From positions 1 through 47,891 of IMG/VR virus record IMGVR_UViG_3300043493_000024: 47,891 nucleotides of DNA; one strand, 5' to 3'. The notes below the pieces were generated by a model. That model was not told where the DNA came from. It saw nothing but the letters and a program-made list of their open reading frames with translations, and searched no databases. This DNA comes from a virus (taxonomy: Duplodnaviria; Caudoviricetes). Numbering within the stretch: position 1 is the first letter of the stretch; each line of letters begins with the position of its first letter. Both the position numbers and the translations under genes were made by a program. Below, piece after piece: positions 8,944-38,977 of this stretch.

Positions 8944-9002
8944 CAATTCGTGATAATAGAAAGTGATACGACTGTTGACATTGTTTGAAATGTTGCTATG
9001 GT
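8941..9002 (+). promoter_or_regulatory. Early promoter repeat P3
   Basis: TTGACA(8975)-N16-TATGGT; near-identical to the P1 block. Confidence 0.8.
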
Positions 9003-12529: not shown

Positions 12530-12560
12530 CAGTTGCGTATCGTAGCATATTAGGCGTATG

Positions 12561-12597
12561 GTGGCCGCAGTGATTCGTCGCTGCGGCCACTGTCTTT
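12561..12597 (+). terminator. Intrinsic terminator
   Basis: GTGGCCGCAGTGA-TTCG-TCGCTGCGGCCAC followed by TGTCTTT. Confidence 0.75.
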
Positions 12598-19371: not shown

Positions 19372-19517
19372 TAACACAATGGCGCAATTGGTGGAAACTT
19401 TGGCCGCGTTATAGTTGGCATTCTGATATGTCAACTAATTACGGATATAATGATTATGAATCAACATTAAATGAATTTTCTTTTGGCCCATTTCTATATA
19501 CATGGTACTCATTATGA
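19368..19517 (+). CDS. Aromatic-rich micro-ORF (49 aa), not in the ORF track
   Basis: MITQWRNWWKLWPRYSWHSDM...; ATGA overlaps with MuF and with the next gene. Confidence 0.5.
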   Translation: MITQWRNWWKLWPRYSWHSDMSTNYGYNDYESTLNEFSFGPFLYTWYSL

Positions 19518-20152: not shown

Positions 20153-21063
20153 TACGATCAATTTATATTTCTGTTCCCGCATGGGGCGATTTATATATAG
20201 AACTTGCTGTGAATTTTACGATACCAGCAATACAAGCATCTTTACTTGAAAGTAAATTTACTGATATTCATTTTATAGTTCATACTGATAAACCAGTCGC
20301 ATTCGAGCAAGTTTTGTTTTCGTGGCAAACTCAATATGTGCCTATATCCCTAGCGCCGTTGCCGAATCGAGGAAGGCTTAACCGTATTCCAGATGTTCAT
20401 TGGGTAGCGTTCAAACAAGCACATAAAGACGTGCTAAATATGACACCAGAAGGTGCAATTGCTGTATTGTTAAATAGTGATGTAGTTGTCTCGCGTGAAA
20501 CGTTTTCGGTTGTTAATAACGCTATCGAGGATGGAAAAAAAGCTGTTGTGTCAGTTGGTATTAGAACGTCCGTTGAACAGAATGACGGCGGACCACCAAT
20601 AGGTGCTAATGCTAATGAATTGTTCAAATGGATTTGGAAACATCGCCATCACATAACGGATCAATGTATTTGGGGCAGTGGTGGTTCACGTCATCCAACA
20701 ATTTTATTTTTTGATGATGGCAAAAACGTATCAATGCACGGATTTCATTTGACGCCTATGTTTGTTTTGAAAGATCGGGAATTTATGTTTAGAGGCACAA
20801 TTGATGATGATTTGTTGCAAAATTATAGCGACGATGAAATACAATATTTGACAAATGGGGAAGCTGCATTTTGTGAAATGTCATCTGACGCAAAAGCTCA
20901 TCCTTTTAGCGAAGTGCCATTAACCGTTGACGCTGTTTTTGATTTTGGTAAGCGTCGATTTAGACCGGCGCACATTCGTAATTTTAAGCAGCGAATGCGA
21001 GTGCTTGGCAATCCAACTGTTAACCATCTTGCGGCGAATGAAATCATAGCAAGGTTTTCGTGA
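20149..21063 (+). CDS. Putative GT-A fold glycosyltransferase
   Basis: IYISVPAWGDLY...IP, FIVHTD, AVLLNSDVVVS (DxD-like position); coupled to the previous gene. Confidence 0.5.
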   Translation: MIRSIYISVPAWGDLYIELAVNFTIPAIQASLLESKFTDIHFIVHTDKPVAFEQVLFSWQTQYVPISLAPLPNRGRLNRIPDVHWVAFKQAHKDVLNMTPEGAIAVLLNSDVVVSRETFSVVNNAIEDGKKAVVSVGIRTSVEQNDGGPPIGANANELFKWIWKHRHHITDQCIWGSGGSRHPTILFFDDGKNVSMHGFHLTPMFVLKDREFMFRGTIDDDLLQNYSDDEIQYLTNGEAAFCEMSSDAKAHPFSEVPLTVDAVFDFGKRRFRPAHIRNFKQRMRVLGNPTVNHLAANEIIARFS

Positions 21064-21128
21064 TGCCTGATGTAATTTTTATATTTGTGGTAGGTTTATT
21101 GTTAGTAGTGTTGTGGAGGAGTTTGTGA
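21063..21128 (+). CDS. Single-TM micro-peptide (21 aa), not in the ORF track
   Basis: MPDVIFIFVVGLLLVVLWRSL; TGATG overlaps at both ends. Confidence 0.55.
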   Translation: MPDVIFIFVVGLLLVVLWRSL

Positions 21129-21982
21129 TGTTGACTTGCTACTATGATTTAGGAAAATGTCCGCCAACTTATGATATAGTTGCGTCACTATGTCATTTCG
21201 AACAAGTGAGAATTGACCGTGGTGAGCAAACTGGAAAGATTATTTTTATAGCAGGGCCTAATCAAGGCTTTCGTTTTGATGAATTTTGGCCGTTTACGAT
21301 TCAAGAGCGGCATAAAATGTTAGCAAATGTTGCTATACCGATGGCGCGAATGTTGCCAAAATTTACAGTTGAATTTCAAGATGGACCATGTAGCGCCGTT
21401 AAGGGATCAATCGGTTACGGACAACGTCGATATGGTTTGAATGTTTTAGTTGCTGCTATGACAAATGGTATAAGACCGCTAGTTTCGCCACGATCTTTAG
21501 AAGATGCTGGAATTTTGAAATATTCAAATATTGTTACTATGACATTGAGAGAATGTGAACACTGGCCAGAACGTAATTGTGATTTAGTTGAATGGAGCGT
21601 TGCTGCAAAAGAATTACAAATAATGGGTTTTGAAGTTATAATAATCCGCGATACATTACACGCAAACGATATTTTTTCTTATATAGAGACTTGCCCAAAT
21701 GCTTCACATAATATTGATTTTCGTGCAAACGTTTATAAACTCGCATATCGCAATTTATTCGTAAATAACGGGCCAGCGTGGTTTGCAATGGCGCTAGATG
21801 CTCCGGTGATTATGTTGAAACCAACTATTGAAGGTTTAATGCGAACGTGCTCGAAAGAATATTTTGCGCAATGTGGAATACCGGAAGGTGAACAAATACC
21901 TAACGCGCCCACATATCAGCAATTAGTGTGGGAAGATGATACAACGGAAAATATTGTGGCGGCATTTAATGCGTCCCGCTAA
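21128..21982 (+). CDS. Putative GT-B fold (GT9-like) glycosyltransferase
   Basis: VTMTLRE...PERNCDLVEWSVAAKEL...GFEVIIIRD...RANVYKLAYRNLFVNNGPAWFAMALDAPVI resembles a GT9 C-terminal domain; GGAGGAG RBS. Confidence 0.55.
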   Translation: MLTCYYDLGKCPPTYDIVASLCHFEQVRIDRGEQTGKIIFIAGPNQGFRFDEFWPFTIQERHKMLANVAIPMARMLPKFTVEFQDGPCSAVKGSIGYGQRRYGLNVLVAAMTNGIRPLVSPRSLEDAGILKYSNIVTMTLRECEHWPERNCDLVEWSVAAKELQIMGFEVIIIRDTLHANDIFSYIETCPNASHNIDFRANVYKLAYRNLFVNNGPAWFAMALDAPVIMLKPTIEGLMRTCSKEYFAQCGIPEGEQIPNAPTYQQLVWEDDTTENIVAAFNASR

Positions 21983-22184
21983 ACGATCAAATGATGAATT
22001 ATTACAATGGGCAACTCGCATACTTGCGCGCGAGCAAGAGGCAATGTTGTACGGTACAGTTTCATTTGAATTTGAAAATGGTGTGATTCGACGTACCGTG
22101 ACAAATAAATCCGAGTTGCCCACACCATCGGAAACGCTTGCAGGGCCTAGGCTTGTGCAGCCTCTTGACAACGCGAGCGGATAA
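21969..22184 (+). CDS. Small protein with a YezD/DUF2292-like helix plus beta-hairpin (candidate RNA-binding regulator)
   Basis: ELLQWATRILAREQEAMLYGTVSFEFENGVIRRTVTNKSE; YG-x-hxhxhxx-G-x-h pattern; family resemblance from memory. Confidence 0.5.
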   Translation: MRPAKRSNDELLQWATRILAREQEAMLYGTVSFEFENGVIRRTVTNKSELPTPSETLAGPRLVQPLDNASG

Positions 22185-22193
22185 GTGTAGGGC
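22165..22193 (+). promoter_or_regulatory. Putative promoter for the capsid-tail operon
   Basis: CTTGACA-N17-TAGGGC. Confidence 0.45.
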
Positions 22194-22221
22194 GGATTTG
22201 CTGCTAGGGTGATACTCTTTT

Positions 22222-22280
22222 GGCTATCGGAACAACCGGGGCCACACTGTCCGCAAGGATCGTGTGGCCTTTGGCTTTTT
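22222..22280 (+). terminator. Leader terminator overlapped by an alternative (antiterminator-like) hairpin
   Basis: Terminator GGCCACAC-TGTCC-GCAA-GGATC-GTGTGGCC-TTTGGCTTTTT (22240-22280); alternative hairpin GGCT-A-TCGG-AACAA-CCGG-GGCC (22222-22243) shares GGCC. Confidence 0.7.
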
Positions 22281-22292
22281 GGTAATTAGCTA

Positions 22293-23624
22293 ATGAAGTT
22301 GATTGTGAATAAATGCGGTTGTGATGATGCTAGCGGCTTTGCTGGCGTTTCAATTATTTCTAATTTTGCGCCGCAAGTACGTCGCACAACTTATCAGAAT
22401 CGCGCGACGTTAATTGTTCCAGTTGTGATGTTGCGGCAAGCTGTGGTTAACGGCGCATTTGTTTCTAAAGATCAATTGCACCCTGAAAGTTGGAACGGTG
22501 TTCCAGTTACTTTGCGGCATCCTTCAAATGACGATGATGAATTTGTTTCCGCAAACGATCCTGTAGCACTTGAAAAGTTTTCAGTTGGCCGCATTTTTAA
22601 TTCACATATTGATGGTGACAAGCTTAAAGGCGAAGCTTGGATTGATATTGAAAAAGCAAATTCTGTATATCCCGGTATTGTTGCTATGCTTGAAAGCGGA
22701 AAGCCGATGGACGTTTCGACCGGATACTTCGCATTGCGTGATAACACGGATGGAACGTATCTAGGTAAGCAATACAAAGTCAAACATCATGATTTGAAAC
22801 CGGACCATCTTGCATTGTTGCCCGATGAATCGGGCGCGTGCTCATGGCTTGATGGTTGCGGCGTGCGGGCAAATATGGAGGTTGATACTATGAACGTTAA
22901 AGAGTTTGTTGCGCTGATTACAAATACAATCGGTGGCAATGAATCGGAAACGATCATTAACGAGTTGATTGGAAATACGGCTGCGCCGTTTGTGGAACCT
23001 GACCGCGAAAGCTTGCGCGCTATGCGGAAAGAAGTGCTTGCAGGATTGAAAACAACGTACCTGAAAGGTGAAACAATGAGCACGAAGCCAAAGCCTTTTG
23101 TTGCGGCCGAATTGAAAGCGGCCGGATATGATGACGCTGCTATTGCTCGCATTATTGCAGCTTCGGCGGAACCGCCAAAGGAAAAGACTGCGGCGGAAAT
23201 TGCGGCCGAAAAAGCGGCTAGTGATGCTGCTATTGCGGCTGGCAAGCAACCGTTGCCAGCTACGGTTGCGGAAATGAATGCGCTTATTGCAAATGGTGTT
23301 GTTGCTGCACTTAAAACAGCAATGCCGCTTGCACTTGCTGAATCGCGGCGGCCGGAATTGCTTGTAAAAGTTATTGCACATACGGCACATACAAAAGAAG
23401 CAGCCGAAAAGATGGATACGGCAACGCTTGAAATTATCGTTGCAGGTTTGAAGCCTGTGGCGGTTGCTGGCGTGCGCAATTTTAGCGGTCGTCAAGTTCC
23501 GAATGCTGGCAAGAGTGGTGACGATGATGCAAAGTTTGCAAAGTCAATGGTGCCGCTTTCAATGGCGGATTACGTAGCTAATCAGAATGCGGCGAAAGTT
23601 GCCGCGAATGCAGGAGTAAAATAA
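22293..23624 (+). CDS. Prohead protease/scaffold (DUF2213-like)
   Basis: WNGVPVTLRHP, MDVSTGY, PDHLALLPDESGACSWLDGCG; Ala-rich scaffold-like C-terminus. Confidence 0.85.
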   Translation: MKLIVNKCGCDDASGFAGVSIISNFAPQVRRTTYQNRATLIVPVVMLRQAVVNGAFVSKDQLHPESWNGVPVTLRHPSNDDDEFVSANDPVALEKFSVGRIFNSHIDGDKLKGEAWIDIEKANSVYPGIVAMLESGKPMDVSTGYFALRDNTDGTYLGKQYKVKHHDLKPDHLALLPDESGACSWLDGCGVRANMEVDTMNVKEFVALITNTIGGNESETIINELIGNTAAPFVEPDRESLRAMRKEVLAGLKTTYLKGETMSTKPKPFVAAELKAAGYDDAAIARIIAASAEPPKEKTAAEIAAEKAASDAAIAAGKQPLPATVAEMNALIANGVVAALKTAMPLALAESRRPELLVKVIAHTAHTKEAAEKMDTATLEIIVAGLKPVAVAGVRNFSGRQVPNAGKSGDDDAKFAKSMVPLSMADYVANQNAAKVAANAGVK

Positions 23625-24071
23625 ATGTCAAGTTCTGACACTCCGAAAACCATTCTGTTAAAAGGTGATCCAATTTCGCTTGAAGGCGCGGCTGCGGCTG
23701 CAAGTGCAATCAAGCCCGGAATGTTGGTTGAACAAATCGCCGCTGGTACATATCGCGCACACGCGAGCGCGGGTGGTAACGCTGCAAAGATTTTTGCGCG
23801 TGAAGCTGATTATGTCGGCGGCGGGATTGATGATGTGTACGATGTTGGCGAAAACGTCGTCATGTGGCATTGTAAGCCGGGTGACTGGATTTATGCATTC
23901 TTGAAAGCCGGTCAAGACGTGACAATCGGTACGTTTCTTGAAAGTGCTGGCGATGGTAGTTTGCGCGATACTGGAACAAGCGGTTATGCTATCGCAAAAG
24001 CGGTAGAAGCGGTTGACAATGCTCCCGGTGTCGGCGGCGCGGCCGTCCGTATTAAAGTGGAGGTCGTGTAA
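23625..24071 (+). CDS. Capsid decoration protein
   Basis: Small Ala/Gly-rich beta protein between protease and MCP (IKPGMLVE, LESAGDGSLR). Confidence 0.7.
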   Translation: MSSSDTPKTILLKGDPISLEGAAAAASAIKPGMLVEQIAAGTYRAHASAGGNAAKIFAREADYVGGGIDDVYDVGENVVMWHCKPGDWIYAFLKAGQDVTIGTFLESAGDGSLRDTGTSGYAIAKAVEAVDNAPGVGGAAVRIKVEVV

Positions 24072-25168
24072 TGTTTAAGAAATATCTTCTTTCCGGTACT
24101 GCTAGCATTGTTGCGCACGCAATCGGTGATGACTTCGGGATTGATAGTGCAGCATCTAGCGGTGCATCTGATTTGCTTAACGTGCTAGCGCGCCGTCCGT
24201 TCATTGATCCAAATGACGGTGAAAGCAAAATTGTCGTAAATCATGGTGGCGGTAATTACGGAACGCTGGTAACGAATGCGCCAGCAACGTTGCAATATCA
24301 GGAATGGCTTGATATTGATCGCACTGTTATCGAAGTTGGTGTGCGCCGTCTTGTCGGTATTGCTGACTTGCAGTCGCGCGGTCTTACACACCCATTAGGA
24401 TCAATCGGCGTTACTGTGTCGCTTTGGGATCGTTCCAGCGATATGACTGGTGCTGACGTTGATATGTCGGGAGTTACTCCGGGTGAGGAAGATACGCCCG
24501 CATATCTGACCGCTAGCGTTCCTGTACCAGTGATTCATAAAGATTTCCGTATTAACTTGCGGCGTCTTGAAGCTTCGCGACGTTTTGGCGAAGCAATTGA
24601 CGTTACTGCGGCCAACATTGCATCGCGTGTTGTTGCGGAAGCTTCCGAGAATATGTTGTTTGCCGGTGATCCTATTGTTGTTGAGGGTGCTACAATTTAC
24701 GGATATACAAACCATCCTGATCGAAATCAGGTTGATATGGCGGTATCTTGGGCGTCGATTGCACAAGCTGACAACGACGACATTGTTGCCGATGCTTCTG
24801 CAATGTTGCAAGCGGCGCGGAATGACCGCCACTATGGTCCGTTTATAATGTATATTCCTGCCGCGTATGAGTTCAAGTTGGATCAAGATTACCGCGCGAG
24901 CGATAACCGCACATTGCGGCAACGCTTGCTTAGTCTTGGCGGTTTGCAAGACATTAAGATTGCCGATTTTATGGCAACTGATAACGTTGTACTTGTCGAG
25001 TTGGATCGCATGACGGTTGATCTTGCTACCGCACAAGATATAACGACAGTTCAATGGTCGCACATGGGCGGAATGCAAGAGCGCTTCAAGGTTATGGCAA
25101 TTTGGGTGCCGCGCCTTAAATCCGATTTTGATGGTCGGTCGGGTATCGTGCATCTGTTGCCGTTGTAA
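24071..25168 (+). CDS. Major capsid protein, encapsulin/Linocin-M18-like HK97 fold
   Basis: EWLDIDRTV...RRLVGIADL, VPVPVIHKDFRINLRRLEASR, IYGYTNHPDR, HYGPF; position in the head module. Confidence 0.88.
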   Translation: MFKKYLLSGTASIVAHAIGDDFGIDSAASSGASDLLNVLARRPFIDPNDGESKIVVNHGGGNYGTLVTNAPATLQYQEWLDIDRTVIEVGVRRLVGIADLQSRGLTHPLGSIGVTVSLWDRSSDMTGADVDMSGVTPGEEDTPAYLTASVPVPVIHKDFRINLRRLEASRRFGEAIDVTAANIASRVVAEASENMLFAGDPIVVEGATIYGYTNHPDRNQVDMAVSWASIAQADNDDIVADASAMLQAARNDRHYGPFIMYIPAAYEFKLDQDYRASDNRTLRQRLLSLGGLQDIKIADFMATDNVVLVELDRMTVDLATAQDITTVQWSHMGGMQERFKVMAIWVPRLKSDFDGRSGIVHLLPL

Positions 25169-25183
25169 AGAAAAGGGTAAAAC

Positions 25184-25648
25184 ATGACAAATACAAGCAC
25201 GCAAGCATGGCCGTCACAAGCTACACAACCTGCCGCACCTAGCACACAAGCTGCATCTGTAACAGCCACGCAACAAAATCCTTTGCCGGGTACGCAAGCT
25301 GCACCCGGTACGCCGCTTTATGCACGTCAGCAAACGCGCCGCAAGTTATCGGCTGCACACCCTGATAACACGGAACCGAAACGGTGCTATCGCATTTTAC
25401 GTGGTCAATATACACGTCGCGAGTATGCCACTGGCGATAAGAAGGGGGCGTTTGTTCATTATGCCGCTGGTACGTCACGCGATACACTTGAAATGACGGA
25501 CGCGGAATCGGAACGTTTCGGCCGCAAGTTTCTTGTCGAGGTAACGAGCGGCGGACTCGAAAAACCTACGCAAGAGCAAGTTGCGTATGTTGAAAGTCAG
25601 AAACGAGTGTCGGCGCGAGTTGGCGCAAAGGGTAAAGAAGTTGCGTAA
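25184..25648 (+). CDS. Hypothetical protein after the MCP (Thr/Gln/Pro/Ala-rich N-terminus)
   Basis: RBS and TAATG coupling. Confidence 0.7.
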   Translation: MTNTSTQAWPSQATQPAAPSTQAASVTATQQNPLPGTQAAPGTPLYARQQTRRKLSAAHPDNTEPKRCYRILRGQYTRREYATGDKKGAFVHYAAGTSRDTLEMTDAESERFGRKFLVEVTSGGLEKPTQEQVAYVESQKRVSARVGAKGKEVA

Positions 25649-26256
25649 TGGCGTTAGATGCAACAGTCGGCGGTGCTAACGCAAATAGCTATTTAACGGT
25701 TACGGAAGCAACCGCATATTTTGCAACGCGATTGTATAGTAGTGTATGGACCGCTGCTAGCAACGGCGATAAGGAAGCCGCGTTGATTTGGGCAACGCGG
25801 CTTATTGATGCAAAAATAAAACCCGAATGGGACCAAAAAGAATTTCCACAAGACGCAACCATTCGCCGCATATCAACGATAACAGCGGATGGTCAATGTT
25901 TCATTTGTTGGAATGGCGCGGCAACTGACAATGTGCAAGCGTTAGCGTGGCCGCGTACTGGAATGAAAAATAAGAACGGATATGACATTTTATCGAATGT
26001 GATTCCACAACAGCTAAAAGATGTGACTTGTGAGCTAGCTTTATTGCTGCTTACAGGTGATCGCACGGCTGAAAATGAAATAGATGTTTTAGGTCTTACC
26101 GGCATTAAAGCGGGTCCGGTTGAATTAAGTTTCAAAAATACAATTGAGCAAGCGAAAATATTGCCAATAGCGGTAATTGATTTGCTTGTACCTAGTTGGT
26201 ATTTTGTTTTCATGTTGGACCCTTCCGCAACTAGAACACTATTCAAGGTGCTATGA
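25648..26256 (+). CDS. Head-tail adaptor (DnaT-like family)
   Basis: GGANANSYLTV, KEAALIWATRLID, QALAWPR, IPQQLKDVTCELAL. Confidence 0.8.
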   Translation: MALDATVGGANANSYLTVTEATAYFATRLYSSVWTAASNGDKEAALIWATRLIDAKIKPEWDQKEFPQDATIRRISTITADGQCFICWNGAATDNVQALAWPRTGMKNKNGYDILSNVIPQQLKDVTCELALLLLTGDRTAENEIDVLGLTGIKAGPVELSFKNTIEQAKILPIAVIDLLVPSWYFVFMLDPSATRTLFKVL

Positions 26257-26426
26257 TGAATGATGATTTTCCCTTAGCTGACGAAAACATCGCGAAGTTG
26301 CGCGCACACTTACAAGCACCGTGCGAAGCAGGGCAACATTTTGATAAGTTGTGCTGTGCTGTAATGTTGCTTGCTGATATGATTTTAGAAGATGTGCAAA
26401 AAGATCGCGCGGAACAAAAAAAATAA
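26253..26426 (+). CDS. Small hypothetical protein (57 aa), not in the ORF track
   Basis: MMNDDFPLADENIAKLRAHL...; overlaps both neighbours. Confidence 0.55.
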   Translation: MMNDDFPLADENIAKLRAHLQAPCEAGQHFDKLCCAVMLLADMILEDVQKDRAEQKK

Positions 26427-26809
26427 TGGGTCTTGCATCCATCATAGCAAATGGAATAGCAAAAGCCGATAGGATTACGGCTGATTTGCAACCGAATGTT
26501 TTACATGAAGCATGGACCGGGCAAGATGAATTTGGTACAGCAACGTATGCCGCTGGCGTGAATCGCGCGGCAATTGTTGAAAAGAAAACAAAGCTAGTTA
26601 CCAACAATGCGGGGATTGAAGTCAAGGCGGAAACGCTCATTTCCATTATTCGCCCCGTGCTCGCCAATGGCGCGGCAGGACGGCAGGAACCTATCGACCC
26701 TAGAGACCGTTTCACGCTACCGGATGGGTCTACAGGGCCGGTAATGGCCATTGAGGGGCTTATCGACCGGACGACCGGAGCGCCCTTCTATTCTCAGGTA
26801 TGGCTTTAA
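26426..26809 (+). CDS. Head closure protein
   Basis: GQDEFGTATY, IDPRDRFTLPDG; synteny. Confidence 0.7.
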   Translation: MGLASIIANGIAKADRITADLQPNVLHEAWTGQDEFGTATYAAGVNRAAIVEKKTKLVTNNAGIEVKAETLISIIRPVLANGAAGRQEPIDPRDRFTLPDGSTGPVMAIEGLIDRTTGAPFYSQVWL

Positions 26810-27222
26810 TGGTGACAACCGCAGAACAACGTCACAAGCGGGATATAAAAGTTGTATTAGACAACTTGAATCATGCTGTGGAAAATATTAAAGGTCAGAC
26901 AGTTGGCGGATTGTTGGCAGGTGGTTTGATCGTGCAACGCGAAGCACAGAAGCATGTACCAGTTGAATACGGAAACTTACGAGGTAGTGCGTACACGCGG
27001 CGCGCAATGGATAACTCACTAGCTGTTGAAATTGGATTCACTGCAAACTATGCAATTTTTGTGCATGAAAATTTGAACATAAAGCACGCTGGCGAACCGC
27101 GTCCTAGCGGATTAGGTGTGTTTTGGGGTCCGCAAGGCGAACCGAAGTTTTTAGAACATGCACTCACTAACAAACATGCAGAAATTCTTGACGCAATAGT
27201 AAAACGGGCAAAGATCGCATAA
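26809..27222 (+). CDS. HK97 gp10-like tail completion protein
   Basis: VPVEYGNLRGSA, IGFTANYAIFVHE, PKFLEHAL. Confidence 0.85.
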   Translation: MVTTAEQRHKRDIKVVLDNLNHAVENIKGQTVGGLLAGGLIVQREAQKHVPVEYGNLRGSAYTRRAMDNSLAVEIGFTANYAIFVHENLNIKHAGEPRPSGLGVFWGPQGEPKFLEHALTNKHAEILDAIVKRAKIA

Positions 27223-27428
27223 TGGCGCGCATATCACATAATGATAAAGCTGCGCGCGGTAAAAATGTTTTTCTTGATGGCATTTTGCAAAAAAATGTAC
27301 GTTGGTTTGATATTGAACGCGGAGAAATTGAAAAAGTAAAAATTGATAGGAATGGAAATATTGTTTTGAATGCGGACAAAAGCGCCGTTGAACTTGAAAT
27401 TGTACGCGGCGTTGTGACGGTGATTTAA
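27222..27428 (+). CDS. Small hypothetical protein
   Basis: TAATG coupling on both sides. Confidence 0.6.
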   Translation: MARISHNDKAARGKNVFLDGILQKNVRWFDIERGEIEKVKIDRNGNIVLNADKSAVELEIVRGVVTVI

Positions 27429-27811
27429 TGGCAACACCTGCCCACACTATTGCAACATTTCTTGCGGCTGCAAGTGTGGGCACACTTGGCGGAACTGCGG
27501 CATGGTCAATATTTGTAGCGCGTGAACCCGTAACACCGGCTGACGTGATTACGCTTTATGATTATGACGGCGGTGAACCTGATACGGACCAATTGGATTT
27601 GTTACCGCGAGTGCAAGTGCGTACACGTAGTGGTGATTACGCAGCATCATATGCAAAGCATGAAACAATCCGCGATTTGTTGATTCTCAATTCTCCGGTT
27701 GCGGGTTTCGTTGACGTGCAACTAATATCCGGTCCTATGGCGATTGGTTATGATGAAAATAATCGCCATTTGATAACTGCAAACTATCGCGCAATCAAAC
27801 AACGGAGTTAA
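27428..27811 (+). CDS. Tail terminator
   Basis: ITLYD, PRVQVRTR, GYDENNRH...ANY; directly precedes the tail tube gene. Confidence 0.78.
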   Translation: MATPAHTIATFLAAASVGTLGGTAAWSIFVAREPVTPADVITLYDYDGGEPDTDQLDLLPRVQVRTRSGDYAASYAKHETIRDLLILNSPVAGFVDVQLISGPMAIGYDENNRHLITANYRAIKQRS

Positions 27812-27815
27812 GGCG

Positions 27816-28208
27816 ATGGCAAACGCAATGGTCGGTCGTAGTATTATTTTGTTGTGGGGCGCTACTGCAATTGCTGGCGTTAGACAAAAAAGCGTTAAGT
27901 GTAACGGAACGCCTGTTGATATTACATCGGATGATGATGCTGGATGGCGCAAATTGTTGACGGTTAGCGGCGAAGATATGATTGACTTGGATTTGTCGGG
28001 AGTTACCAAGTCACAAGCTTTGAAGTCTGATTTTTTTGCTGGCACGCGCACAAAAGCAGTATCGCTTACATATCCTAGCGGTGGTGTGCTTGCCGGAACA
28101 TTCTATATGGGTAGTTATGAAGATACCGGCGAGCATAAGGGGGAAGTTACATTTTCGCTCAAATTGCAATCCTCCGGTGTTGTTACTTGGATTCCGGGCA
28201 GTAGCTAA
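27816..28208 (+). CDS. Major tail tube protein (GTA/TP901-1-like)
   Basis: IAGVRQKS...VDITSDDDAGWRKLL, VTFSLKLQSSG. Confidence 0.85.
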   Translation: MANAMVGRSIILLWGATAIAGVRQKSVKCNGTPVDITSDDDAGWRKLLTVSGEDMIDLDLSGVTKSQALKSDFFAGTRTKAVSLTYPSGGVLAGTFYMGSYEDTGEHKGEVTFSLKLQSSGVVTWIPGSS

Positions 28209-28603
28209 TGGGTAGTATCTTTAAGGAAGTAACCTTAGCTTGGGATGGGAAAGAGTACAAAATTCCAAGTGATAAGGTTATGGGTGCAATTGCGTGTGTA
28301 GAGCAACACGTAACGTTGCATGAATTATATTTAGGTTCGGCTACTGGCGCGGTCAAGTTGTCTAATTTATCTGCCGCATATGCAGCCGTTCTTACATATG
28401 CGGACGCAAAAGGTGCTACGCAAGAGGCTGTATATGCGTCAATGTTCGGGCAAGATACCGGACGCGACATAATTTTTGAGGCAATACGCGGTTTGCTTGT
28501 GATGATGATTCCGCCGCAAGACTTGCAAAAGGAAACTACGGACCCAAAAGCGAACAGACAAATTCGACGGGCCGTTACGAGTTTGTCAAAGAAGCGTACA
28601 TAG
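28208..28603 (+). CDS. Tail assembly chaperone (G)
   Basis: Lies between tube and tape measure genes; contains a slippery heptamer. Confidence 0.8.
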   Translation: MGSIFKEVTLAWDGKEYKIPSDKVMGAIACVEQHVTLHELYLGSATGAVKLSNLSAAYAAVLTYADAKGATQEAVYASMFGQDTGRDIIFEAIRGLLVMMIPPQDLQKETTDPKANRQIRRAVTSLSKKRT

Positions 28604-28773
28604 CGGCCGTATGTGTTTGGAAAATTCAACCTTCGGAATTTTGGAGGATGCATCCAACGGAATTTTGGTGGCAAGCTAGGTTTCATACGCCGGTTAAGAT
28701 GTACGGCGATCTAACGGAAGATGATGTTGACGAGCTATCTAGGGACTTAGAAAAATGGCAGAACAATCCCTAG
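28543..28773 (+). CDS. -1 frameshift extension of the tail assembly chaperone (GT)
   Basis: C-CCA-AAA at 28543-28549 in the correct phase; -1 frame open to TAG 28773, encoding VWKIQPSEFWRMHPTEFWW. Confidence 0.8.
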   Translation, partial: PKSEQTNSTGRYEFVKEAYIAAVCVWKIQPSEFWRMHPTEFWWQARFHTPVKMYGDLTEDDVDELSRDLEKWQNNP

Positions 28774-30854
28774 GTGGCGTAAAAGTTTACATAGGCGGTG
28801 ATGTTTCCGGGCTTGCTGTTGCATCGGCGCAAGCTGGCGGATTATTGCGCGGGTTAGATTCGCGCATTGACGCGACCATGCACAAGTTAGAATTATGGGG
28901 CGCGCTTATTCATGTTGTCGGCATTGCATTGGTCGAAAAATTTGCTGCGGCTGGTAAGCAGCTAGACGACACTGCAAAACAAATAGGAACGACAACAGAT
29001 AGGTTGCAAGCGTATCAATATGGCGCTGCAATTGCCGGTGTTGAAACTGGCGTTTTGACTGTAGCGTTTCAAAAATTCTCGCGCGAGCTTGGCGAATCTA
29101 GTGCGCAGATAACACCATTTCGGCAAGCGTTAGGCCAACTTGGAATCGATTTTCAAAATTTGAAAAAGTTGAAATTTGATGATGCGCTTGCGCTTGTGCA
29201 GGATCGTTTAAGTAAGATTGAAGATGTAACAAAGCGCAATAATATTGCATTTGATATTTTTGGCCGTACAGGTGTAAAGGCTGTGAATTTTCTTTCGTTA
29301 TCCGCCGATGCAATGGGGAAGTTTACAAAAGAAGCTGAAAAGGCTGGCGTGATAATTTCAAAAGATACAATACATAAAGCCGCAGAATTGTCCGATGAAT
29401 TTGACAAAATGGGGATTTCATTAAAGGCAACTAGCATTCGTATGTCTGCGGAATTTTTACCGGCTGCACAAAAGATTCGCGAGTTTTTGACTGACCCAAG
29501 CGTGCAAGCTGGCGCGGCAAATATTGCTAGATATATCGGAGAAATTGTAAAATATTTAGTTGATAATAAAGAAACTGTTTTGACTGTGATCGGTGCGCTT
29601 GGCGGTGCTATGGCTGGCGGTGCTGTGTTAGGTCGTTTAGGATCATACGGTAAATTATTAGGTGTTATTGGTGGCGGTGCCGTTGGTGCGAAGATGGCAC
29701 TTGATGGAATGAAAGATGAAATCACAAAATTAGACGATGAACTTTCAAACGCCGTTGATAAACTGCGGCAATGGCGCGATGCTGCGGAAAGTACAAATCC
29801 AATTGTAAAAAAGATGTTTACACCGGAGGAAATTGCAAAAAATATTAAGATACAAGAGGCATTAATTGATGATCTTACGAAACGATATAACGCCGCACAA
29901 AAAGCGGCAATGGCTGCCAGTAATGCTGCAAAATTAATTGTGCCTGTACATACTGACACACCTAACGGTCCTGCCGCTGTTCCTGTATTTCCTGAGATTT
30001 CAAAAGCTATTGAAGATACACGATTAAAAGGTATGCAATTGCGCAATGAGTTAAAAGGCATTGCAGAAGGTTTCCCGGATTTGCTTAAAGGTATGAATCT
30101 TAAAGACGTTGACGTGCTGAAAATGGTTTCCGATGGTGTGGGAAAAATTAGCGGACAATTCAAACAATTAAATGAGGAAATGGTAAAGAATGTTGAAATT
30201 CCAAATATTCAAAAGGCATTATTGACTGAAACTGAATTAATGCAATTGGAATTAGATAAGAGACTTGGATATTTGAAAACATATGAGGCTATGAAAACGG
30301 TAGAAGTTGGAAAGGCGGAAGCTATCCGAAACAAGCTAGTAGAAAAAAGCAATAACGATATGCGAGTAGCTACCGCAAAACAATATTCGGCACTTGCCAA
30401 CATTGTTGACACTTCATTGTCCCAAATTCGCGATCTAGTAGGTGATCGCGGCGGCGCGGCGTTTGAAATTATGAAGGGCATCAGTATGGCTACCGCCCTT
30501 GTAAAAGGGTACGAAGCGACTGTCAGTGCATACGCACAAGGGTCCGCTATTGGTGGTCCGATGGTCGGTGCTGCATTCGCTGCTATCGCTGCGGCTGGTA
30601 CTGCGGCTGTGATCGCCAAGCTTGCTATGACGCGACCGGGCGGGGCGCAAGAAACGCCTAGCGCGCCACCAACGGGTGGAGCGGAAGCGGCAACAACTAG
30701 TGCGGGCGGGAGCGGTGGCGGGGGAAATGGTGGTCAAACGATTTTCATTCAAGGTGTAAAGTCTGGCATGAATTATAGTGGCGATCAATTGCGCGAGTTG
30801 TTTAAGGCAATTAATTCCCACATTGCAGACGGCGGCAAGATTGTGATGGGATGA
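28755..30854 (+). CDS. Tape measure protein
   Basis: 699 aa, helical and Ala-rich, with hydrophobic Gly-rich segments; synteny. Confidence 0.88.
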   Translation: MAEQSLGGVKVYIGGDVSGLAVASAQAGGLLRGLDSRIDATMHKLELWGALIHVVGIALVEKFAAAGKQLDDTAKQIGTTTDRLQAYQYGAAIAGVETGVLTVAFQKFSRELGESSAQITPFRQALGQLGIDFQNLKKLKFDDALALVQDRLSKIEDVTKRNNIAFDIFGRTGVKAVNFLSLSADAMGKFTKEAEKAGVIISKDTIHKAAELSDEFDKMGISLKATSIRMSAEFLPAAQKIREFLTDPSVQAGAANIARYIGEIVKYLVDNKETVLTVIGALGGAMAGGAVLGRLGSYGKLLGVIGGGAVGAKMALDGMKDEITKLDDELSNAVDKLRQWRDAAESTNPIVKKMFTPEEIAKNIKIQEALIDDLTKRYNAAQKAAMAASNAAKLIVPVHTDTPNGPAAVPVFPEISKAIEDTRLKGMQLRNELKGIAEGFPDLLKGMNLKDVDVLKMVSDGVGKISGQFKQLNEEMVKNVEIPNIQKALLTETELMQLELDKRLGYLKTYEAMKTVEVGKAEAIRNKLVEKSNNDMRVATAKQYSALANIVDTSLSQIRDLVGDRGGAAFEIMKGISMATALVKGYEATVSAYAQGSAIGGPMVGAAFAAIAAAGTAAVIAKLAMTRPGGAQETPSAPPTGGAEAATTSAGGSGGGGNGGQTIFIQGVKSGMNYSGDQLRELFKAINSHIADGGKIVMG

Positions 30855-30855
30855 A

Positions 30856-31671
30856 ATGGCAGTCGTAATATCACGCGATTATGTTTTATCCTCGCCAACG
30901 TCTAGCGGTGACACGGAAACAAATGATAATCCTATTATCGGGTATAGGAACATTATAAATAGCTCAAATATTGTATCTGATTTTGCGAACTCTAGCTTTC
31001 CGGTTAGCAACCTTGTGAATCCTGCTACCAATTTGAAATGGAAATCAACTGTAGCAAGTTTACAATATATTACTATAACACCAACAATCAACGCTATAGA
31101 TTATGTTGCAATAGCTAGACATAATTTAGCAACATCATTTACTCCGATTTCAATAGAAGGTTTCGACGGTGTAACGTGGTCCGAATTAGTTTCTCCGGTT
31201 ATTTTAGCAGATGATCGTCCTGCTATTTTTAGGTTTCCATTGCAAAGCTTGCTGCAAGTGCGAATCAAGTTAGATGTTGGTTTTGACATTCCGTTTATTT
31301 CGGTTGTGTATTGCGGTGAATTATTAGTATTGCAGCGTCGAATTTATGTCGGACATATTCCTATTCCATTCGGGCGTGAAGATAACATTGTAAATGGAAA
31401 AAGTGAAAGTGGCGAGTTTCTAGGACGTATTGTATTAGGTTCTAGTGTATCTAATGCAGTGAGTTTGAAAAACATAACGCCGCTGTGGTATAGGGCATAT
31501 TTGGACCCTTTCATAGTATCGAGTAAAACAATACCATTCTTTTTTGCGTGGCGTCCTATGACATATCCCGAAGAAGTCGGTTATGCTTGGATTACAAATA
31601 ACCCGAAAGCGGTTAATCAGTCTGTAAACGGGTTTATGTCAATTGACTTGCAGTTGTCGGGTGTATCATAA
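30856..31671 (+). CDS. Distal tail-like protein
   Basis: First gene after the TMP; IDYVAIARHNL, PFFFAWRP. Confidence 0.65.
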   Translation: MAVVISRDYVLSSPTSSGDTETNDNPIIGYRNIINSSNIVSDFANSSFPVSNLVNPATNLKWKSTVASLQYITITPTINAIDYVAIARHNLATSFTPISIEGFDGVTWSELVSPVILADDRPAIFRFPLQSLLQVRIKLDVGFDIPFISVVYCGELLVLQRRIYVGHIPIPFGREDNIVNGKSESGEFLGRIVLGSSVSNAVSLKNITPLWYRAYLDPFIVSSKTIPFFFAWRPMTYPEEVGYAWITNNPKAVNQSVNGFMSIDLQLSGVS

Positions 31672-33995
31672 TGACACCTTTCGAGCGAAAATCATTAACG
31701 TATGTTGAAATAGATTTAGACCATTGCTCTTTAACATATGGTGTTGCACCTTGTACGGCTGCAATACCGACTACTGGCGCGATCAAGTGCTTTAACTCGT
31801 TAGGTACTTGTCAAGATCGCGCGAATTTTACAAACGTTCCGGTAATGGTTCGATTCGGAATGCGTGGCGTTAATTATTTGCCAAATACTATTGAGTGTAT
31901 TCCATCAATGATAGGTGTGAATTTTACACCGGCAACAGTGTCATTAGGTGTTGACCTTGGATTGCGCGCAACACTTGATGTTAGTTTCAAGGATCATCCT
32001 AGCAGCGATTTTGATGGCGGAATAGTGTGGGATAAATATTTATCAGAACGTACATATGATCCATTTAAGTTAGGAACATTTTTTGGAAAATTTCGAGCGC
32101 GTAATCCATTCTTACGCGGGCGCGCTATACGTTGGATTACAGGTTATGAAGGTCAAACGTTAGTCGAAATGGAAACGCGGCATTTCATTATTGAAAGTTT
32201 TGACGGACCTAAACCGGATGGTACTTATAGTATAACTGGAAAAGATATTTTCAAACTTGCTGACGGTGATCGCGCGCAGGCACCATTACTAAATCAAGGT
32301 TTTATTGTTGCTGATATAACCAATGTTGCAACGGCTGCAACGTTGTCACCAACTGGAATAGGGAATGCTGAATATCCTGCTAGTGGAACGCTCGCAATAG
32401 GCGGAAAAGAAATTGTAACGTTTACGCGGAGCGGCGATGTTTTGACACTAACTCGCGCACAGCACAACACGGTTGCGGTTGCTCACACTGCACAAGAAAA
32501 ATGTCAAGTTTGTTTGATATATACCGGGCAAAAAGTTTCGGCAATCATTCGAGATTTGTTCGTTACTTATGCCGGTGTTGATTCTGCATTCATTGATTTA
32601 ACGGCATGGGATATAGAAGATACTCGATATTTAGGGATCGTTTACACTGCTATTATTGCAAATCCAACGGCGGTTAGCGATCTTGTGTCAGAATTGATAA
32701 AGCAGGCTGCGCTTGTGCTTTGGTGGAATGATATAGAGGAAAAAATAGGGTTTCAAGTTTTGCGTGGCGTTGTGCCGGATGAAATTATATTTAATGAAAG
32801 CAATATGATTGCATCATCTTTCAATATAGAGGAACAACCTGATAAACGCATATCTCAAGTATGGACATTTTTTGCGCAAATAAATTCATTAACAACGTTG
32901 GACGATGAAGCAAATTACAGATCGGTGGCGTTGACAGTTGATTTGCAAGCGGAAGCGGATTACGGAACGCCAGCAATAGACAAAATATTTTCGCGGTGGA
33001 TTCCGGTTGGTGGTCGTGCTGTTGCATTGCGTTTGAATGATATTCAGTTAGGACGTTACCGCGATCCGCCTAGGGTAGTAAATTTTGAACTAATGCGTTA
33101 CAACGATAGTGGCGTTACATTAGCAAGAGGCTATAACGTCGGTTCATGGTTGCTGCAAGATGAAACGGGAGCATCTATTGATGTTCCAGTACAAGTTACG
33201 CGGTTAAATCCTACTGCAAGTAAAATGCGAATTGAAGCGGAAGAAATTTTATTTATTGTACCTGCTTTTGATTTAGCTAATAGGCAAATTACGATTGATG
33301 CAAATATCAACAATTTCAATTTGCGCACAGCGCATGATTCTATATATCCGCCACCACAGAGCGGCGATGTTGTCACTTGCACTATTGAAAGTGCTGTTAT
33401 CGTCGGTTCGGCTGACGTATTTCTAAATGCTTTTGAAGTTGGTGGTTGGCCTAGCGGTGTTATTATCAATATTGTGTTGCATGGTCGTATGCAGGGTTGC
33501 GGTGGTTATGGTGGTAAGGGTGCATATAACTCCGGTGTTGGATTTATAAACGGGGAAGCTGGTAAATTTGGCGGAACAGCATTTTTCACAACGTACCCAA
33601 TTGTTATGTCGGGAGCGGGTGAAATTTTCGGCGGTGGTGGCGGTGGTGGTGGCGGTGGTCATGGGTCATTAGGCTTTACAGTAAGTATAAGCGGCGGTGG
33701 CGGCGGTGGCGGCCGTGGCCAATTGCCGGGTAATGGTGGATCAATCTATAGTGCAGATTTTGCCGGTATTCCCGGCAGTGCTGGCACATCTGAAAGTGTT
33801 GGCATTGGTGGTAGCGGTGGTGCCGATAGCGGACGCGGCGGCGATGGTGGCGGCGCGGGAGCGGCGGGAGCTAATGGGATCGCGGGCGCGGGCGGGAGCG
33901 GTGGAGTCGGTGGCGCGGCTGGCACAGCTATTGACGGTAATAGCCACATAACGGGCGGCGGAAGTATCACGGTAACAGGTGCAAGGATCAATTAA
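31671..33995 (+). CDS. Tail tip/hub protein with a Gly-rich C-terminus
   Basis: N-terminal CSLTYGVAPCTA..KCFNSLGTCQD; poly-Gly C-terminal region. Confidence 0.75.
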   Translation: MTPFERKSLTYVEIDLDHCSLTYGVAPCTAAIPTTGAIKCFNSLGTCQDRANFTNVPVMVRFGMRGVNYLPNTIECIPSMIGVNFTPATVSLGVDLGLRATLDVSFKDHPSSDFDGGIVWDKYLSERTYDPFKLGTFFGKFRARNPFLRGRAIRWITGYEGQTLVEMETRHFIIESFDGPKPDGTYSITGKDIFKLADGDRAQAPLLNQGFIVADITNVATAATLSPTGIGNAEYPASGTLAIGGKEIVTFTRSGDVLTLTRAQHNTVAVAHTAQEKCQVCLIYTGQKVSAIIRDLFVTYAGVDSAFIDLTAWDIEDTRYLGIVYTAIIANPTAVSDLVSELIKQAALVLWWNDIEEKIGFQVLRGVVPDEIIFNESNMIASSFNIEEQPDKRISQVWTFFAQINSLTTLDDEANYRSVALTVDLQAEADYGTPAIDKIFSRWIPVGGRAVALRLNDIQLGRYRDPPRVVNFELMRYNDSGVTLARGYNVGSWLLQDETGASIDVPVQVTRLNPTASKMRIEAEEILFIVPAFDLANRQITIDANINNFNLRTAHDSIYPPPQSGDVVTCTIESAVIVGSADVFLNAFEVGGWPSGVIINIVLHGRMQGCGGYGGKGAYNSGVGFINGEAGKFGGTAFFTTYPIVMSGAGEIFGGGGGGGGGGHGSLGFTVSISGGGGGGGRGQLPGNGGSIYSADFAGIPGSAGTSESVGIGGSGGADSGRGGDGGGAGAAGANGIAGAGGSGGVGGAAGTAIDGNSHITGGGSITVTGARIN

Positions 33996-36098
33996 ATGTC
34001 AACGCTCGCAAGGTATCAATTCACGGCTGTTGACACACTTGGAAACATTTTACCAAGTGCAAGCGTTGAAGTTAGAAGGGAAAGTGACAACGGCTTGCCA
34101 TTGCTTTATAGTGATCGTGCTGGCACTGTTTCAATTGGTAATCCTTTCACGTCTGACCCTGTTAGTGGTTTCGCGGCATTTCATGTTATAGGTGACTCTT
34201 ATAAAATAGTTGTTACAAAAAATACGTTTTCGCAAACGTTTCGATATGTGGGAATAGGTACAAATTCGGAGTTTGATAGATACCAATATCAGCAACAAGA
34301 AATCGACGTTAGAGATTATGGGGCGGTGTCGGGTGCAGCAGATGTGCGCACACCATTTCAAGCTGCATTAACTGCGGCTGTTGGTGGTCAACGTGTTATT
34401 ATACCAGTTGGAACATGGACATTATTAAGCGATTTAACATATAGCAGCACTTACCCGGTATGGATTGCGCAACCGGGTTTTGTAATGACAACAGCATCAT
34501 TAAATCACATTACCGGACCATATACAGGCACACTTTCAGGTTTCGGTGTGCAATCATTTGAGCTAGCTCGCGCGAAAACAAATACACAAGAATGTTATAA
34601 ATTCATTGGCTTTCAGATTCCGGCAAATACCGGAACGGTAGACCATGAACGCGAAGCCTTTACTGCACTTATTCGCACAAGTGATAATGAATTAGCAACT
34701 GGTCCGTCAGTTTATAAAGCTGCGGTTGGTATGTCGGCACGCGGTTATGTTGCTTCCGGTAATCCTAACGGGCGCGCATTTGGTGCAAATTTATATGGAT
34801 TGATTGAAACAGGCGGTGAAGGTGTTGCGGTTGGTGCGGAAGTTGACGTTTCCCACAATGGGCATGAAAACGCTACACCATTTGCCGGTGATATTAAAGT
34901 TGGTTTGATTGTTGCGAATCAGGGTCCGGTGCCTTGTACGATGGGCATTCAAATTTCCGGTAATCCTTTTTGGTATGGTTTCCTTATCGTGCGCGCGTCG
35001 ATTAAAAATAACGTTGACGCTAGGGCGTTTTTATTACAAGATGTGTTTAGCATTGATCGTGATGGATATACTACGGTTGGTAAACAGGTACATGATAGGC
35101 AAGTGACAGGAATTGAATTTGACCCTACGGGGCAAATATATCAATCGGGTGCAAGTACATTTAATTTTATTCAAACACTTTCGGGCACACCGGGAGCGGG
35201 AACTATTGCACAAAATATTGCGCAACAAAAAAATTCCGCTGGAACATTGAAAACGTTTTTGAATGCTCAATCAATTGTCAGTGTTGCAACAGCGGGAGCA
35301 GAAACGGGTACATATAGTATTGATGGACTTTTGGCCGGTGCTAATGTAAATATTTTTTTAGCTAACGGTTCTAGAATAGGTCCGGGTACTGATAATGCAG
35401 TTACTTGCGGCCATCCATCATTTAGATATTCTACGGTATATGCTGGCACTGGTACAATAAACACATCTGACGTTGTGCTGAAAGATAATGTAACAGATAT
35501 TGAAGATAGGGTTTTGAACGCTTGGGGACGTGTGCGCGGGCGCGCATATCAATGGAAAGATGCAATTGACGCAAAGGGAATCAAAAACGCTCGCGTTCAT
35601 TTTGGATGGATTGCGCAAGATGTTATAAAAGAGTTTGAAGCGGAAAGGTTAGACCCTTGGCGCTATGCTCCATTGTGCAAGGATGAAATAGTTTTGAAAG
35701 TAAAAAGAAAAAAGATTGAGCGTAGGCAAAAGATGGAAAGTCGCGAAGTTACGCACGATGAATTTACAATGGTTAATGGTCGAATGACCATTACAAAAAT
35801 TGTTGAAGTCAAAAACGTACCAGTTATGCAAGATCATTTATTGTATGATGAAAATGGAAAACCTATTTTTGAAAAAGTAAGGATGCGCGACGAAAATCAA
35901 AATGCCATATTTATTGATCGACACCGTGTCTATACGGAACCTGTTTATGAAGATGTTGAAATTGATATTAATGAAGATGTACCAACTGGCGAGTATCGTT
36001 TAGGTTTGCGTTATAGTCAATGCTTAGTTTTGGAAACAGCATGGTTACGTCGCGAAGTTGAAAAATTAACTGCGCTGTTGAAAGGCAAAACGCCATGA
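33996..36098 (+). CDS. Tail fibre/spike 1 with a C-terminal peptidase-S74 intramolecular chaperone
   Basis: IDVRDYGA tailspike entry motif; GTINTSDVVLK...YQWKDAI...RVHFGWIAQDV...LGLRY. Confidence 0.85.
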   Translation: MSTLARYQFTAVDTLGNILPSASVEVRRESDNGLPLLYSDRAGTVSIGNPFTSDPVSGFAAFHVIGDSYKIVVTKNTFSQTFRYVGIGTNSEFDRYQYQQQEIDVRDYGAVSGAADVRTPFQAALTAAVGGQRVIIPVGTWTLLSDLTYSSTYPVWIAQPGFVMTTASLNHITGPYTGTLSGFGVQSFELARAKTNTQECYKFIGFQIPANTGTVDHEREAFTALIRTSDNELATGPSVYKAAVGMSARGYVASGNPNGRAFGANLYGLIETGGEGVAVGAEVDVSHNGHENATPFAGDIKVGLIVANQGPVPCTMGIQISGNPFWYGFLIVRASIKNNVDARAFLLQDVFSIDRDGYTTVGKQVHDRQVTGIEFDPTGQIYQSGASTFNFIQTLSGTPGAGTIAQNIAQQKNSAGTLKTFLNAQSIVSVATAGAETGTYSIDGLLAGANVNIFLANGSRIGPGTDNAVTCGHPSFRYSTVYAGTGTINTSDVVLKDNVTDIEDRVLNAWGRVRGRAYQWKDAIDAKGIKNARVHFGWIAQDVIKEFEAERLDPWRYAPLCKDEIVLKVKRKKIERRQKMESREVTHDEFTMVNGRMTITKIVEVKNVPVMQDHLLYDENGKPIFEKVRMRDENQNAIFIDRHRVYTEPVYEDVEIDINEDVPTGEYRLGLRYSQCLVLETAWLRREVEKLTALLKGKTP

Positions 36099-38488: not shown

Positions 38489-38507
38489 CAACAGAAGGGA
38501 AAGCAAA

Positions 38508-38834
38508 ATGGCACTAGGACAAAAGAACAACGGAATGCCACGGGGAGCGCCAACTGACGCGGAAGCACTCACAAACGCGCAAGAAGGTTTCAAAAAACAA
38601 CAAGAGCATTATGAAGCGAAGTTAGAAAAGCAGCAAACCGAATCGAGTGAATTACTGGCGAATGAGCGCCTTGCACATGATGGTCAGTTAAAAGAAATGG
38701 AAAAGCGGTTAACGGCACAGTTGCAGGATCGTGAGAATCAAATTGCAACCTTGACCGCTGCAAAAGACGCATTGCAACGCGAACATGACGCTATAGCTGC
38801 AAAGCGGCTTGCTGCTAAAACTGCTTTAGAGTGA
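38508..38834 (+). CDS. Coiled-coil protein, last gene of the late operon
   Basis: ATG 38508 after GAAGGGA; charged heptad-like sequence. Confidence 0.65.
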   Translation: MALGQKNNGMPRGAPTDAEALTNAQEGFKKQQEHYEAKLEKQQTESSELLANERLAHDGQLKEMEKRLTAQLQDRENQIATLTAAKDALQREHDAIAAKRLAAKTALE

Positions 38835-38956: not shown

Positions 38957-38977
38957 AGCAGGTTGTCAAAATTTTTC

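Follow-up and report, generated by a model that had tools for sequence, protein, structure and literature searches.

We identified, in the leader of the head-tail operon of a soil phage genome, a 22-nt bulged-A hairpin whose 3' arm overlaps a stronger predicted intrinsic terminator and which lies shortly downstream of a gene for a 71-amino acid protein. Comparison with other loci established, at the level of sequence, two competing structures, covariation, a fixed overlap between hairpin and terminator, and co-occurrence of the RNA with a family of small proteins; the mini-protein probably acts on the hairpin in trans. We propose that the leader is probably controlled by LicT-like antitermination at this single terminator, carried out by a mini-protein unrelated to LicT.

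The window, by which we mean the whole stretch of 47,891 nucleotides that was analyzed, is flanked by direct terminal repeats and represents a complete virus genome of 47.9 kb. The family-B polymerase of this phage was approximately 45-48% identical to the polymerases of RcTitan-like and PaMx25-like phages, and the sole match of its lysozyme-like protein among cultured phages was to a Bradyrhizobium phage (37%), which suggests a host in the Alphaproteobacteria. Pfam and PHROG annotation placed lysis, terminase, portal and Mu-F genes upstream of the hairpin element and, downstream of it, a putatively gated head-tail operon of 16.5 kb (22293..38834, + strand) encoding a DUF2213-type protease, decoration, major capsid, connector, major tail and tape measure proteins, and tail fibers/spike. 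The gene for the 71-amino acid protein is the last of the packaging/portal block; it overlaps the preceding gene by 14 nt and ends 38 nt before the hairpin. An earlier first-pass annotation of this DNA, made from its sequence alone, had located this ORF, a promoter-like TTGACA, the hairpin, a GCAA-loop terminator and a 12-nt gap between the terminator tail and the protease ATG (22293), and all of these coordinates proved correct. Contigs of runs X3 and X4, neither of which was flagged as a possible source, covered the element with identical letters, and it is therefore not an assembly artefact; no sequence variants were found in it among contigs from four runs. Chance or artefact as the origin of the element was ruled out by these independent contigs together with the covariation described below.

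Other features of the window were noted in passing. Between Mu-F and the small gene, three genes (19502-21982, + strand) gave weak sugar-transferase-like matches (phrog_4603; TIGR04414, E 0.035) and possibly form a block of virion or DNA modification genes; transferase-looking genes also lie directly before the protease gene in locus L003. A long, near-perfect, GC-rich hairpin with an imperfect U tail follows the DUF7303 gene (~12558-12595, + strand), and a very AT-rich gap with purine/pyrimidine runs (6240-6580) is a candidate replication origin. Within the convergent gap, a 10-of-12 promoter-like site with TG (39063-39035, - strand) faces a terminator-like hairpin (38956-38936); the region 39063-38926 on this strand is possibly a small RNA of ~100 nt, or merely the end of the replication operon.

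The leader hairpin, its predicted terminator and a candidate promoter

The antiterminator-like hairpin (22222..22243, + strand), which is supported by covariation, consists of a lower stem of 4 bp with a U.G wobble as its closing pair, a bulged A at 22226, a 4-bp upper stem and an AACAA loop. The predicted terminator (22240..22280, + strand) has a stem at 22240-22269 with a GCAA loop, followed by an imperfect U-tract at 22270-22280, and its first four nucleotides also form the 3' side of the lower stem in the hairpin, so that four bases are common to both structures. Directly 5' of the hairpin, folding predicted a weak 5-bp stem followed by a short U run (22206..22218, + strand), which may be a pause site.

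The terminator folded with -23.5 kcal/mol (z -4.7), as good as none of 200 shuffled sequences, and the hairpin alone with -10.4 kcal/mol (z -3.3; 1 of 200 shuffles as good). Within the 51-nt context of 22200-22250 the hairpin was ordinary (z -0.26; 73 of 200 shuffles), and its significance therefore rests on conservation, not on energy. When growing transcripts were folded from an assumed start at 22200, the whole hairpin was predicted to stay until base 22265 emerges, after which the terminator took the lower stem and was favored over the antiterminator state by 4.9-8.2 kcal/mol. The first-pass annotation had described the two structures as mutually exclusive; this is true of the lower stem of the hairpin, but the upper stem and loop remained folded beside the terminator with a pair probability of 0.99. 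The U-tract in the window is weak, having 5 T in its first 8 nt (5 or fewer were found in 9 of 106 family terminators), which suggests some basal leak through the gate. The hairpin occurs only once in the window, and the upstream lysis, terminase and portal genes are therefore not gated by it. Rfam gave no match in the window at the gathering score, and two matches within 21900-22400 were at chance level (E 6-8).

The 3' end of the small gene contains a candidate sigma-70 promoter (TTGACA-17 nt-TAGGGC, without a -7T; 22165..22193, + strand), whose TTGACA (22165-22170) falls within the last codons of the 71-amino acid ORF and which would place the start site near 22200. Consensus promoter scans were at chance level (22 versus 20.5, and 39 versus 33.2), and the first of them did not list the 22165 site. 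When the ortholog P0094 was compared at the protein level, the residues P-[LI]-D-N-A were kept over the -35 codons after a seven-residue gap, and its stop fell 17 nt beyond the TTGACA-equivalent codons, where the -10 TA would be; these residues and the position of the stop favor a promoter at 22165. Similar sites (TTGACA-17/18-TAG) stand 41-42 nt before the hairpin in loci L088 and L365, and of 104 terminator sites only 6 had TTGAC-16/18-TA in the 150 nt upstream. A -7T is absent from most sigma-70 promoters of Alphaproteobacteria (PMC8407463), and TTGACA-17-TAGGGC would be plausible as such a promoter, given a host placement that is itself only suggested. A second site of this type, TTGACA-17 nt-TA without a -7T, was seen at 11671, before the DUF7303 gene. 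Three other promoter-like sites in the window (5132-5159, 8007-8034 and 8975-9002, + strand), in gaps between small early genes, resemble each other in having the form TTGACA-16 nt-TAT(G/T)(A/G)T, and two of them share most of the spacer.

We searched for the hairpin at other loci with four pattern scans that were blind to the terminator, one of which covered 120 of ~220 stretches. Among the matches listed (247 matches in 193 distinct contexts, 192 of these with enough downstream DNA), a terminator started inside the 3' arm of the hairpin in 60 of the 192 sites, and in 51 of the 67 that were non-coding, while of 557 random positions taken from these loci 1 passed the overlapping-terminator test. 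Two further scans, one covering 120 of ~150 stretches, placed no constraint on the lower or the upper stem but required a T-tail, so that only the pairing is informative there. Among the matches listed, all four pairs of the free upper stem were present in 34 of 38 terminator sites versus 2 of 58 others (16 of 20 versus 1 of 54 as distinct sequences), and three pairs of the free lower stem in 39 of 43 versus 0 of 9. Slid controls gave 32 of 80 and 27 of 60 for the upper stem versus 70 of 80 observed, and 40 and 25 of 63 for the lower stem versus 58 of 63 observed. Neither observed pairing total was reached in 2000 column shuffles, these pairing statistics being calculated without a tree on sites of which many are related Bacillaceae prophages.

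Compensatory swaps included C-G/U-A, G-C/A-U and C-G/G-C. The U.G beneath the bulge was retained in 40 of 43 sites, as would be expected of a protein site that is read by its shape. An AACAA loop was found in 54 of the 60 terminator sites (other loops were allowed in part of the scans only). The overlap between hairpin and terminator was 3-6 nt, and the terminator was favored in 97 of 99 intact sites, by a median of 6.5 kcal/mol; the default state is therefore predicted to be OFF. Two loci, L154 and L122, contained the identical 22-nt hairpin. Thus the covarying bulged hairpin and terminator that the first-pass annotation had suggested seeking at other loci were found, and we conclude from these alignments that the hairpin is a widespread conserved RNA element. 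A pattern whose 3' arm was one base longer yielded a single match, which was repeat-derived. A repeated 25-nt sequence in L106, L113, L135 and L174, occurring twice 66 nt apart in L113, also fits the hairpin pattern, without a terminator, and may be a CRISPR-like repeat.

The 71-amino acid protein and its family

The 71-amino acid protein (21969..22184, + strand) appears, from its ortholog P0094, its family profile and its AlphaFold2 model, to be a distant relative of DUF2292/YezD and DUF3954 and is a candidate trans-acting antiterminator. AlphaFold2 (pLDDT 92 for residues 1-52) predicted a helix at residues 8-24 followed by strands at 29-36 and 39-47, which form a beta-hairpin (29-47). The ORF had no direct match in Pfam, PHROG or NCBIfam; it did not match PF10055 (DUF2292/YezD) even at E values up to 1 or 10 (the Pfam cut-off is 22 bits), and it matched DUF3954 neither through the Pfam model (PF13128) nor through a profile of hairpin-linked DUF3954 proteins. 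A single-sequence search recovered only the protein itself, and tblastn in cultured phages gave one match, with E 2. P0094 was 55% identical to the ORF and had the same start Met; a viral DNA scan with the alignment of these two sequences confirmed no locus.

The hairpin scans exposed two types of neighboring gene, DUF3954 in Bacillaceae prophages and, at other loci, an unnamed type with a helix and a beta-hairpin. With the 71-amino acid ORF and seven hairpin-neighbor proteins as its seed, a profile search recruited a family of 449 representative proteins at E 0.001 or better. A profile of 151 family proteins, from which the ORF, P0094, P0003 and P0025 were left out but whose members had been recruited with the ORF in the seed, gave the ORF a score of 22.6 bits, with an E of 1.9e-6 among the 594 ORFs of the window, and none of 2000 shuffles scored as high. 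When only locus-derived proteins entered the profiles, the ORF received just 8-10 bits (E 0.02-0.09 among the 594 ORFs), and it still ranked first, above all shuffles. On these profile comparisons, the window ORF is an outlier of the mini-protein family.

This family shares with DUF2292/YezD (PF10055) the pattern [FY]G...E.G.I and may share its helix plus beta-hairpin, and 55 of its 143 aligned members matched PF10055 with an E value of 0.05 at most (1.3e-6 in the best case). The resemblance of the ORF to YezD/DUF2292 proteins, as proposed in the first-pass annotation, thus stands as transitive homology through the family only, but not as a direct Pfam match. The C-terminal hairpin of DUF3954 aligned to a YezD-like profile with an hhalign E of 2e-4 and a probability of 44%, which is a weak profile-profile link. 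The fold and residues of the family are conserved, and its consensus contains no arginine-rich motif; net charge was above zero in 86% of the 151 members (median +2), and the core of the window protein was near neutral, with 8 basic and 7 acidic residues.

Comparison of the model with known structures gave Atlas rows with DUF2292 at TM 0.56-0.64, below the bar of that tool for a match, no Foldseek match at E 0.001, and no VIA match at Z 5 or more (best 4.2); no sequence relative was found among solved structures. This absence of a known-fold match is no proof of a new fold. Neither DUF2292 nor the family profile was found in 301 sampled alphaproteobacterial genomes, the family-profile search being run without a positive control.

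Co-occurrence of the protein family with the hairpin

All six scans together gave 303 distinct sites, which were counted where 600 nt or more lay upstream. A family gene was nearby at 75 of 93 terminator sites versus 1 of 141 others, with profiles partly trained on the same loci; the sole control site with a family gene, L016, has a stem resembling a terminator but no U-tract. A profile built only on database proteins, some of whose members were identical to locus proteins, gave 29 of 93 versus 0 of 141, and in an iterative search of 4572 ORFs all 31 gathered proteins came from terminator sites. The co-occurrence of the hairpin with homologs of the protein, on which the first-pass annotation had staked its reading, was thus borne out by counts that are partly in-sample and that include, without tree correction, many related Bacillaceae prophages.

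The base above the bulge tracked the protein subfamily, being U in 31 of 34 YezD-like sites and C in 43 of 45 DUF3954 sites (essentially two clades), and it is U in the window. Of 30 downstream proteins that were scanned, 21 had a PHROG match; their functions are often late ones, among them protease, scaffold, small or large terminase and sigma-like regulator. Locus L154 repeats the layout of the window, with a family gene, the identical hairpin, a terminator and a protease that is 45% identical, and a strict hairpin or family gene was present in 0 of 14 of the remaining comparisons (the protease relatives L001-L013 and Bradyrhizobium phage ppBjS10J-1, in the DNA examined). As the module is present in L154 and absent from 13 of 13 other protease relatives in the DNA examined, it is a patchy, portable part. 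DUF3954 genes (PF13128) precede the same hairpin-terminator in the Bacillaceae prophages L049-L105 and L226-L276 and in the cultured Anoxybacillus phage A403 (L033). They differ in having another N-terminus, and since the genes downstream of them are often sigma-like or other regulators, the Bacillaceae prophage switch may gate the late activator itself.

We ranked four other explanations of the locus: a passive or host-controlled attenuator before a post-transcriptional or negative role, then processive antitermination, and last ribosome coupling. The first, which we consider unlikely, is that the attenuator is real but leaky by design or controlled by a host factor, with the small protein as a linked passenger or a helper with another job. 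The weak U-tract in the window and the weak fit of the window protein to the locus-derived profiles agree with this explanation, as do the 18 of 93 terminator sites at which no family gene was detected; L088 and L365, for example, have a promoter-like site, the hairpin and a terminator that is very strong, but the flank examined showed no family gene. Nevertheless, family genes stand at 75 of 93 terminator sites versus 1 of 141 others across differing downstream genes, and a default state predicted to be OFF at 97 of 99 sites would call for an opener where essential genes are concerned. L088 and L365 are possible remote targets of a trans factor.

Loci with bona fide DUF2292 genes bear on the second explanation. 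By eye, six of the nine that we viewed had a related hairpin within ~100 nt, and the cellular DUF2292 hairpins mostly had a different bulge and loop. The association of DUF2292 genes with such hairpins, which the first-pass annotation had mentioned, was therefore seen in these 6 of 9, but an overlap of the hairpin with a terminator was seen in only 1 of 9 (L465). In L464, L466 and L467, cellular DUF2292 genes are followed by two related hairpins, without a terminator, directly before an outer-membrane-like gene, which suggests a translation- or stability-level variant. Several hairpins placed in this way, directly before a start codon and without an overlapping terminator, would suit a protein that binds the hairpin in the phage leader but acts on RNA stability or on translation of the protease, or favors termination as negative feedback. 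The same could be said of the upper stem and loop that persist beside the terminator, so that binding need not block it, and of a folding prediction in which the full leader can pair the 5' arm of the hairpin with the bases just ahead of the ATG. However, conservation extends to the lower stem that competes with the terminator, with its U.G pair (39 of 43), and the overlap is held at 3-6 nt, and we regard such a role as rather improbable.

Known antitermination systems and a model for the leader

In the LicT/RAT system, the antiterminator is the first structure to form and has to be captured before folding of the terminator is complete (PMC5393181). The anatomy of the leader matches this kinetic competition, and LicT/RAT thus serves as a mechanistic precedent. 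As with BglG/SacY/LicT and RAT, the 3' arm of a leader hairpin overlaps a stronger intrinsic terminator and termination is the default, which is predicted here, and by analogy a small protein domain would catch the hairpin ahead of terminator formation (PMC5393181). The RAT has two conserved internal loops, a variable apical loop and 6-10 nt shared with the terminator (PMC5393181), whereas the window hairpin has one bulged A, a conserved AACAA loop and an overlap of 3-6 nt. Unlike BglG/SacY/LicT, the 71-amino acid protein matched neither CAT nor PRD, has no sensor domain and no room for PRDs, and its targets would be phage late genes. As to a CAT-like fold, Foldseek gave no match at E 0.001 and VIA a best Z of 4.2, with none at 5 or more. 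Membership of the BglG/LicT family was rejected on the absence of a CAT and two PRD domains and of the RAT internal-loop pattern.

Antitermination is also the switch for the long operon of a mobile element in lambda N, Q and conAn of pLS20, and HutP and ANTAR exemplify protein-RNA control of a single terminator. Q exerts its effect through DNA close to the promoter; ANTAR proteins rely on twin hairpins. N and conAn differ from the leader studied here in being processive and needing no terminator overlap (PMC8632103, PMC8191782). Nonetheless, a small phage protein and a short stem-loop before a long operon recall N/nut (PMC8632103) and conAn (PMC8191782), and the hairpin might be a boxB-like loading site from which the protein alters RNA polymerase so that antitermination is processive along the whole 16.5-kb operon, the terminator being its first checkpoint. 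We find this quite improbable: local mutual exclusion accounts for the anatomy, terminator-like sites across 22290-39200 were at chance level (22 versus 18.9 +/- 3.8 in shuffles), and the family consensus lacks an arginine-rich motif. Lambda N is an unstructured protein of ~110 amino acids that carries an arginine-rich motif at its N terminus (PMC8632103); membership of this group was rejected for the window protein, which has a folded 45-residue core without a conserved Arg-rich stretch. Membership of the conAn group was likewise rejected, there being no Pfam match to ConAn1 (PF17362) and a conserved RNA of only 22 nt, whereas the conAn2 RNA spans ~260-600 bp (PMC8191782). The system is not N, Q or conAn, and a LicT-like action is likely by analogy, in spite of the absence of the features that define the LicT protein and RNA.

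The distance from the end of the family gene to the hairpin varied from 0 to 785 nt across loci, ORFs intervene in L023, L029 and L047, and in L122 the family gene lies on the opposite strand from the hairpin, all of which speaks for a diffusible factor rather than a leader peptide. Ribosome-coupled attenuation, in which translation of the small ORF and not its product would set the RNA fold, is very improbable in view of these arrangements and of the conserved protein fold and residues, even though in 24 of 34 YezD-like sites no more than 51 nt separate the end of the gene from the hairpin (38 nt in the window).

In our preferred model of LicT-like antitermination, transcription would start from the candidate promoter at 22165, and the bulged-A hairpin would fold first in the leader transcript. 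By default, the stronger terminator is predicted to take the lower stem of the hairpin, leaving the operon OFF. The 71-amino acid protein would bind the hairpin in trans, through contacts that may include the bulged A, the U.G and the loop, and would hold the lower stem shut, and RNA polymerase would then read into the capsid and tail genes. Because the small gene ends the packaging/portal block, its product would accumulate before the head-tail genes open, and these genes would wait until it does so, which would give the protein a role in timing. An additional argument of the first-pass annotation, that no other late activator is evident in the genome, is weak, as the genome contains DUF7303 and DUF4332 genes, many unassigned ORFs, and a ribbon-helix-helix-like ORF (1254-1586, + strand; Atlas features 0.93, TM 0.55-0.63, a lead only); this ORF and the DUF7303 and DUF4332 genes are candidates for other control. 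The ribbon-helix-helix-like ORF adjoins the 5' side of the primase gene at the divergent early region, and its true start is probably internal.

We found no description of a protein-hairpin switch in literature listings on DUF2292, DUF3954, YezD, oscA, XtrA/PBSX and phage antitermination, for the most part outside subscription papers. A term search of a 2025 review of attenuating antiterminators showed no occurrence of DUF, YezD, XtrA, OscA or phage (PMC12591593), and no function for DUF2292/YezD was found at the level of literature listings. The element is real, widespread and protein-linked, and it is a putative RNA switch that is apparently undescribed. We lean towards the broader view that DUF2292, DUF3954 and the unnamed phage mini-protein family of at least 449 members constitute an unrecognized superfamily of ~45-residue RNA-binding antiterminators with a cognate bulged-A/AACAA hairpin. 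Protein and hairpin together would time late genes as a portable module without a sensor, one that differs from N, Q, sigma factors and promoter activators and that unrelated phages insert before head, packaging or late-regulator genes, with subfamily-specific recognition of the RNA.

The cultured Anoxybacillus phage A403 carries the DUF3954 version, which opens this idea to direct test. If the idea is true, a new protein-RNA pair would join the short list of attenuating antiterminators, and synthetic biology would gain a very compact orthogonal switch, made up of a protein of 45 residues and its 22-nt site. A testable function would likewise be assigned to two Pfam domains of unknown function and to a large family without a name. 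Many phages have no recognizable late-gene regulator, and the module, if it acts as we propose, would explain the timing of late gene expression in a wide set of them.
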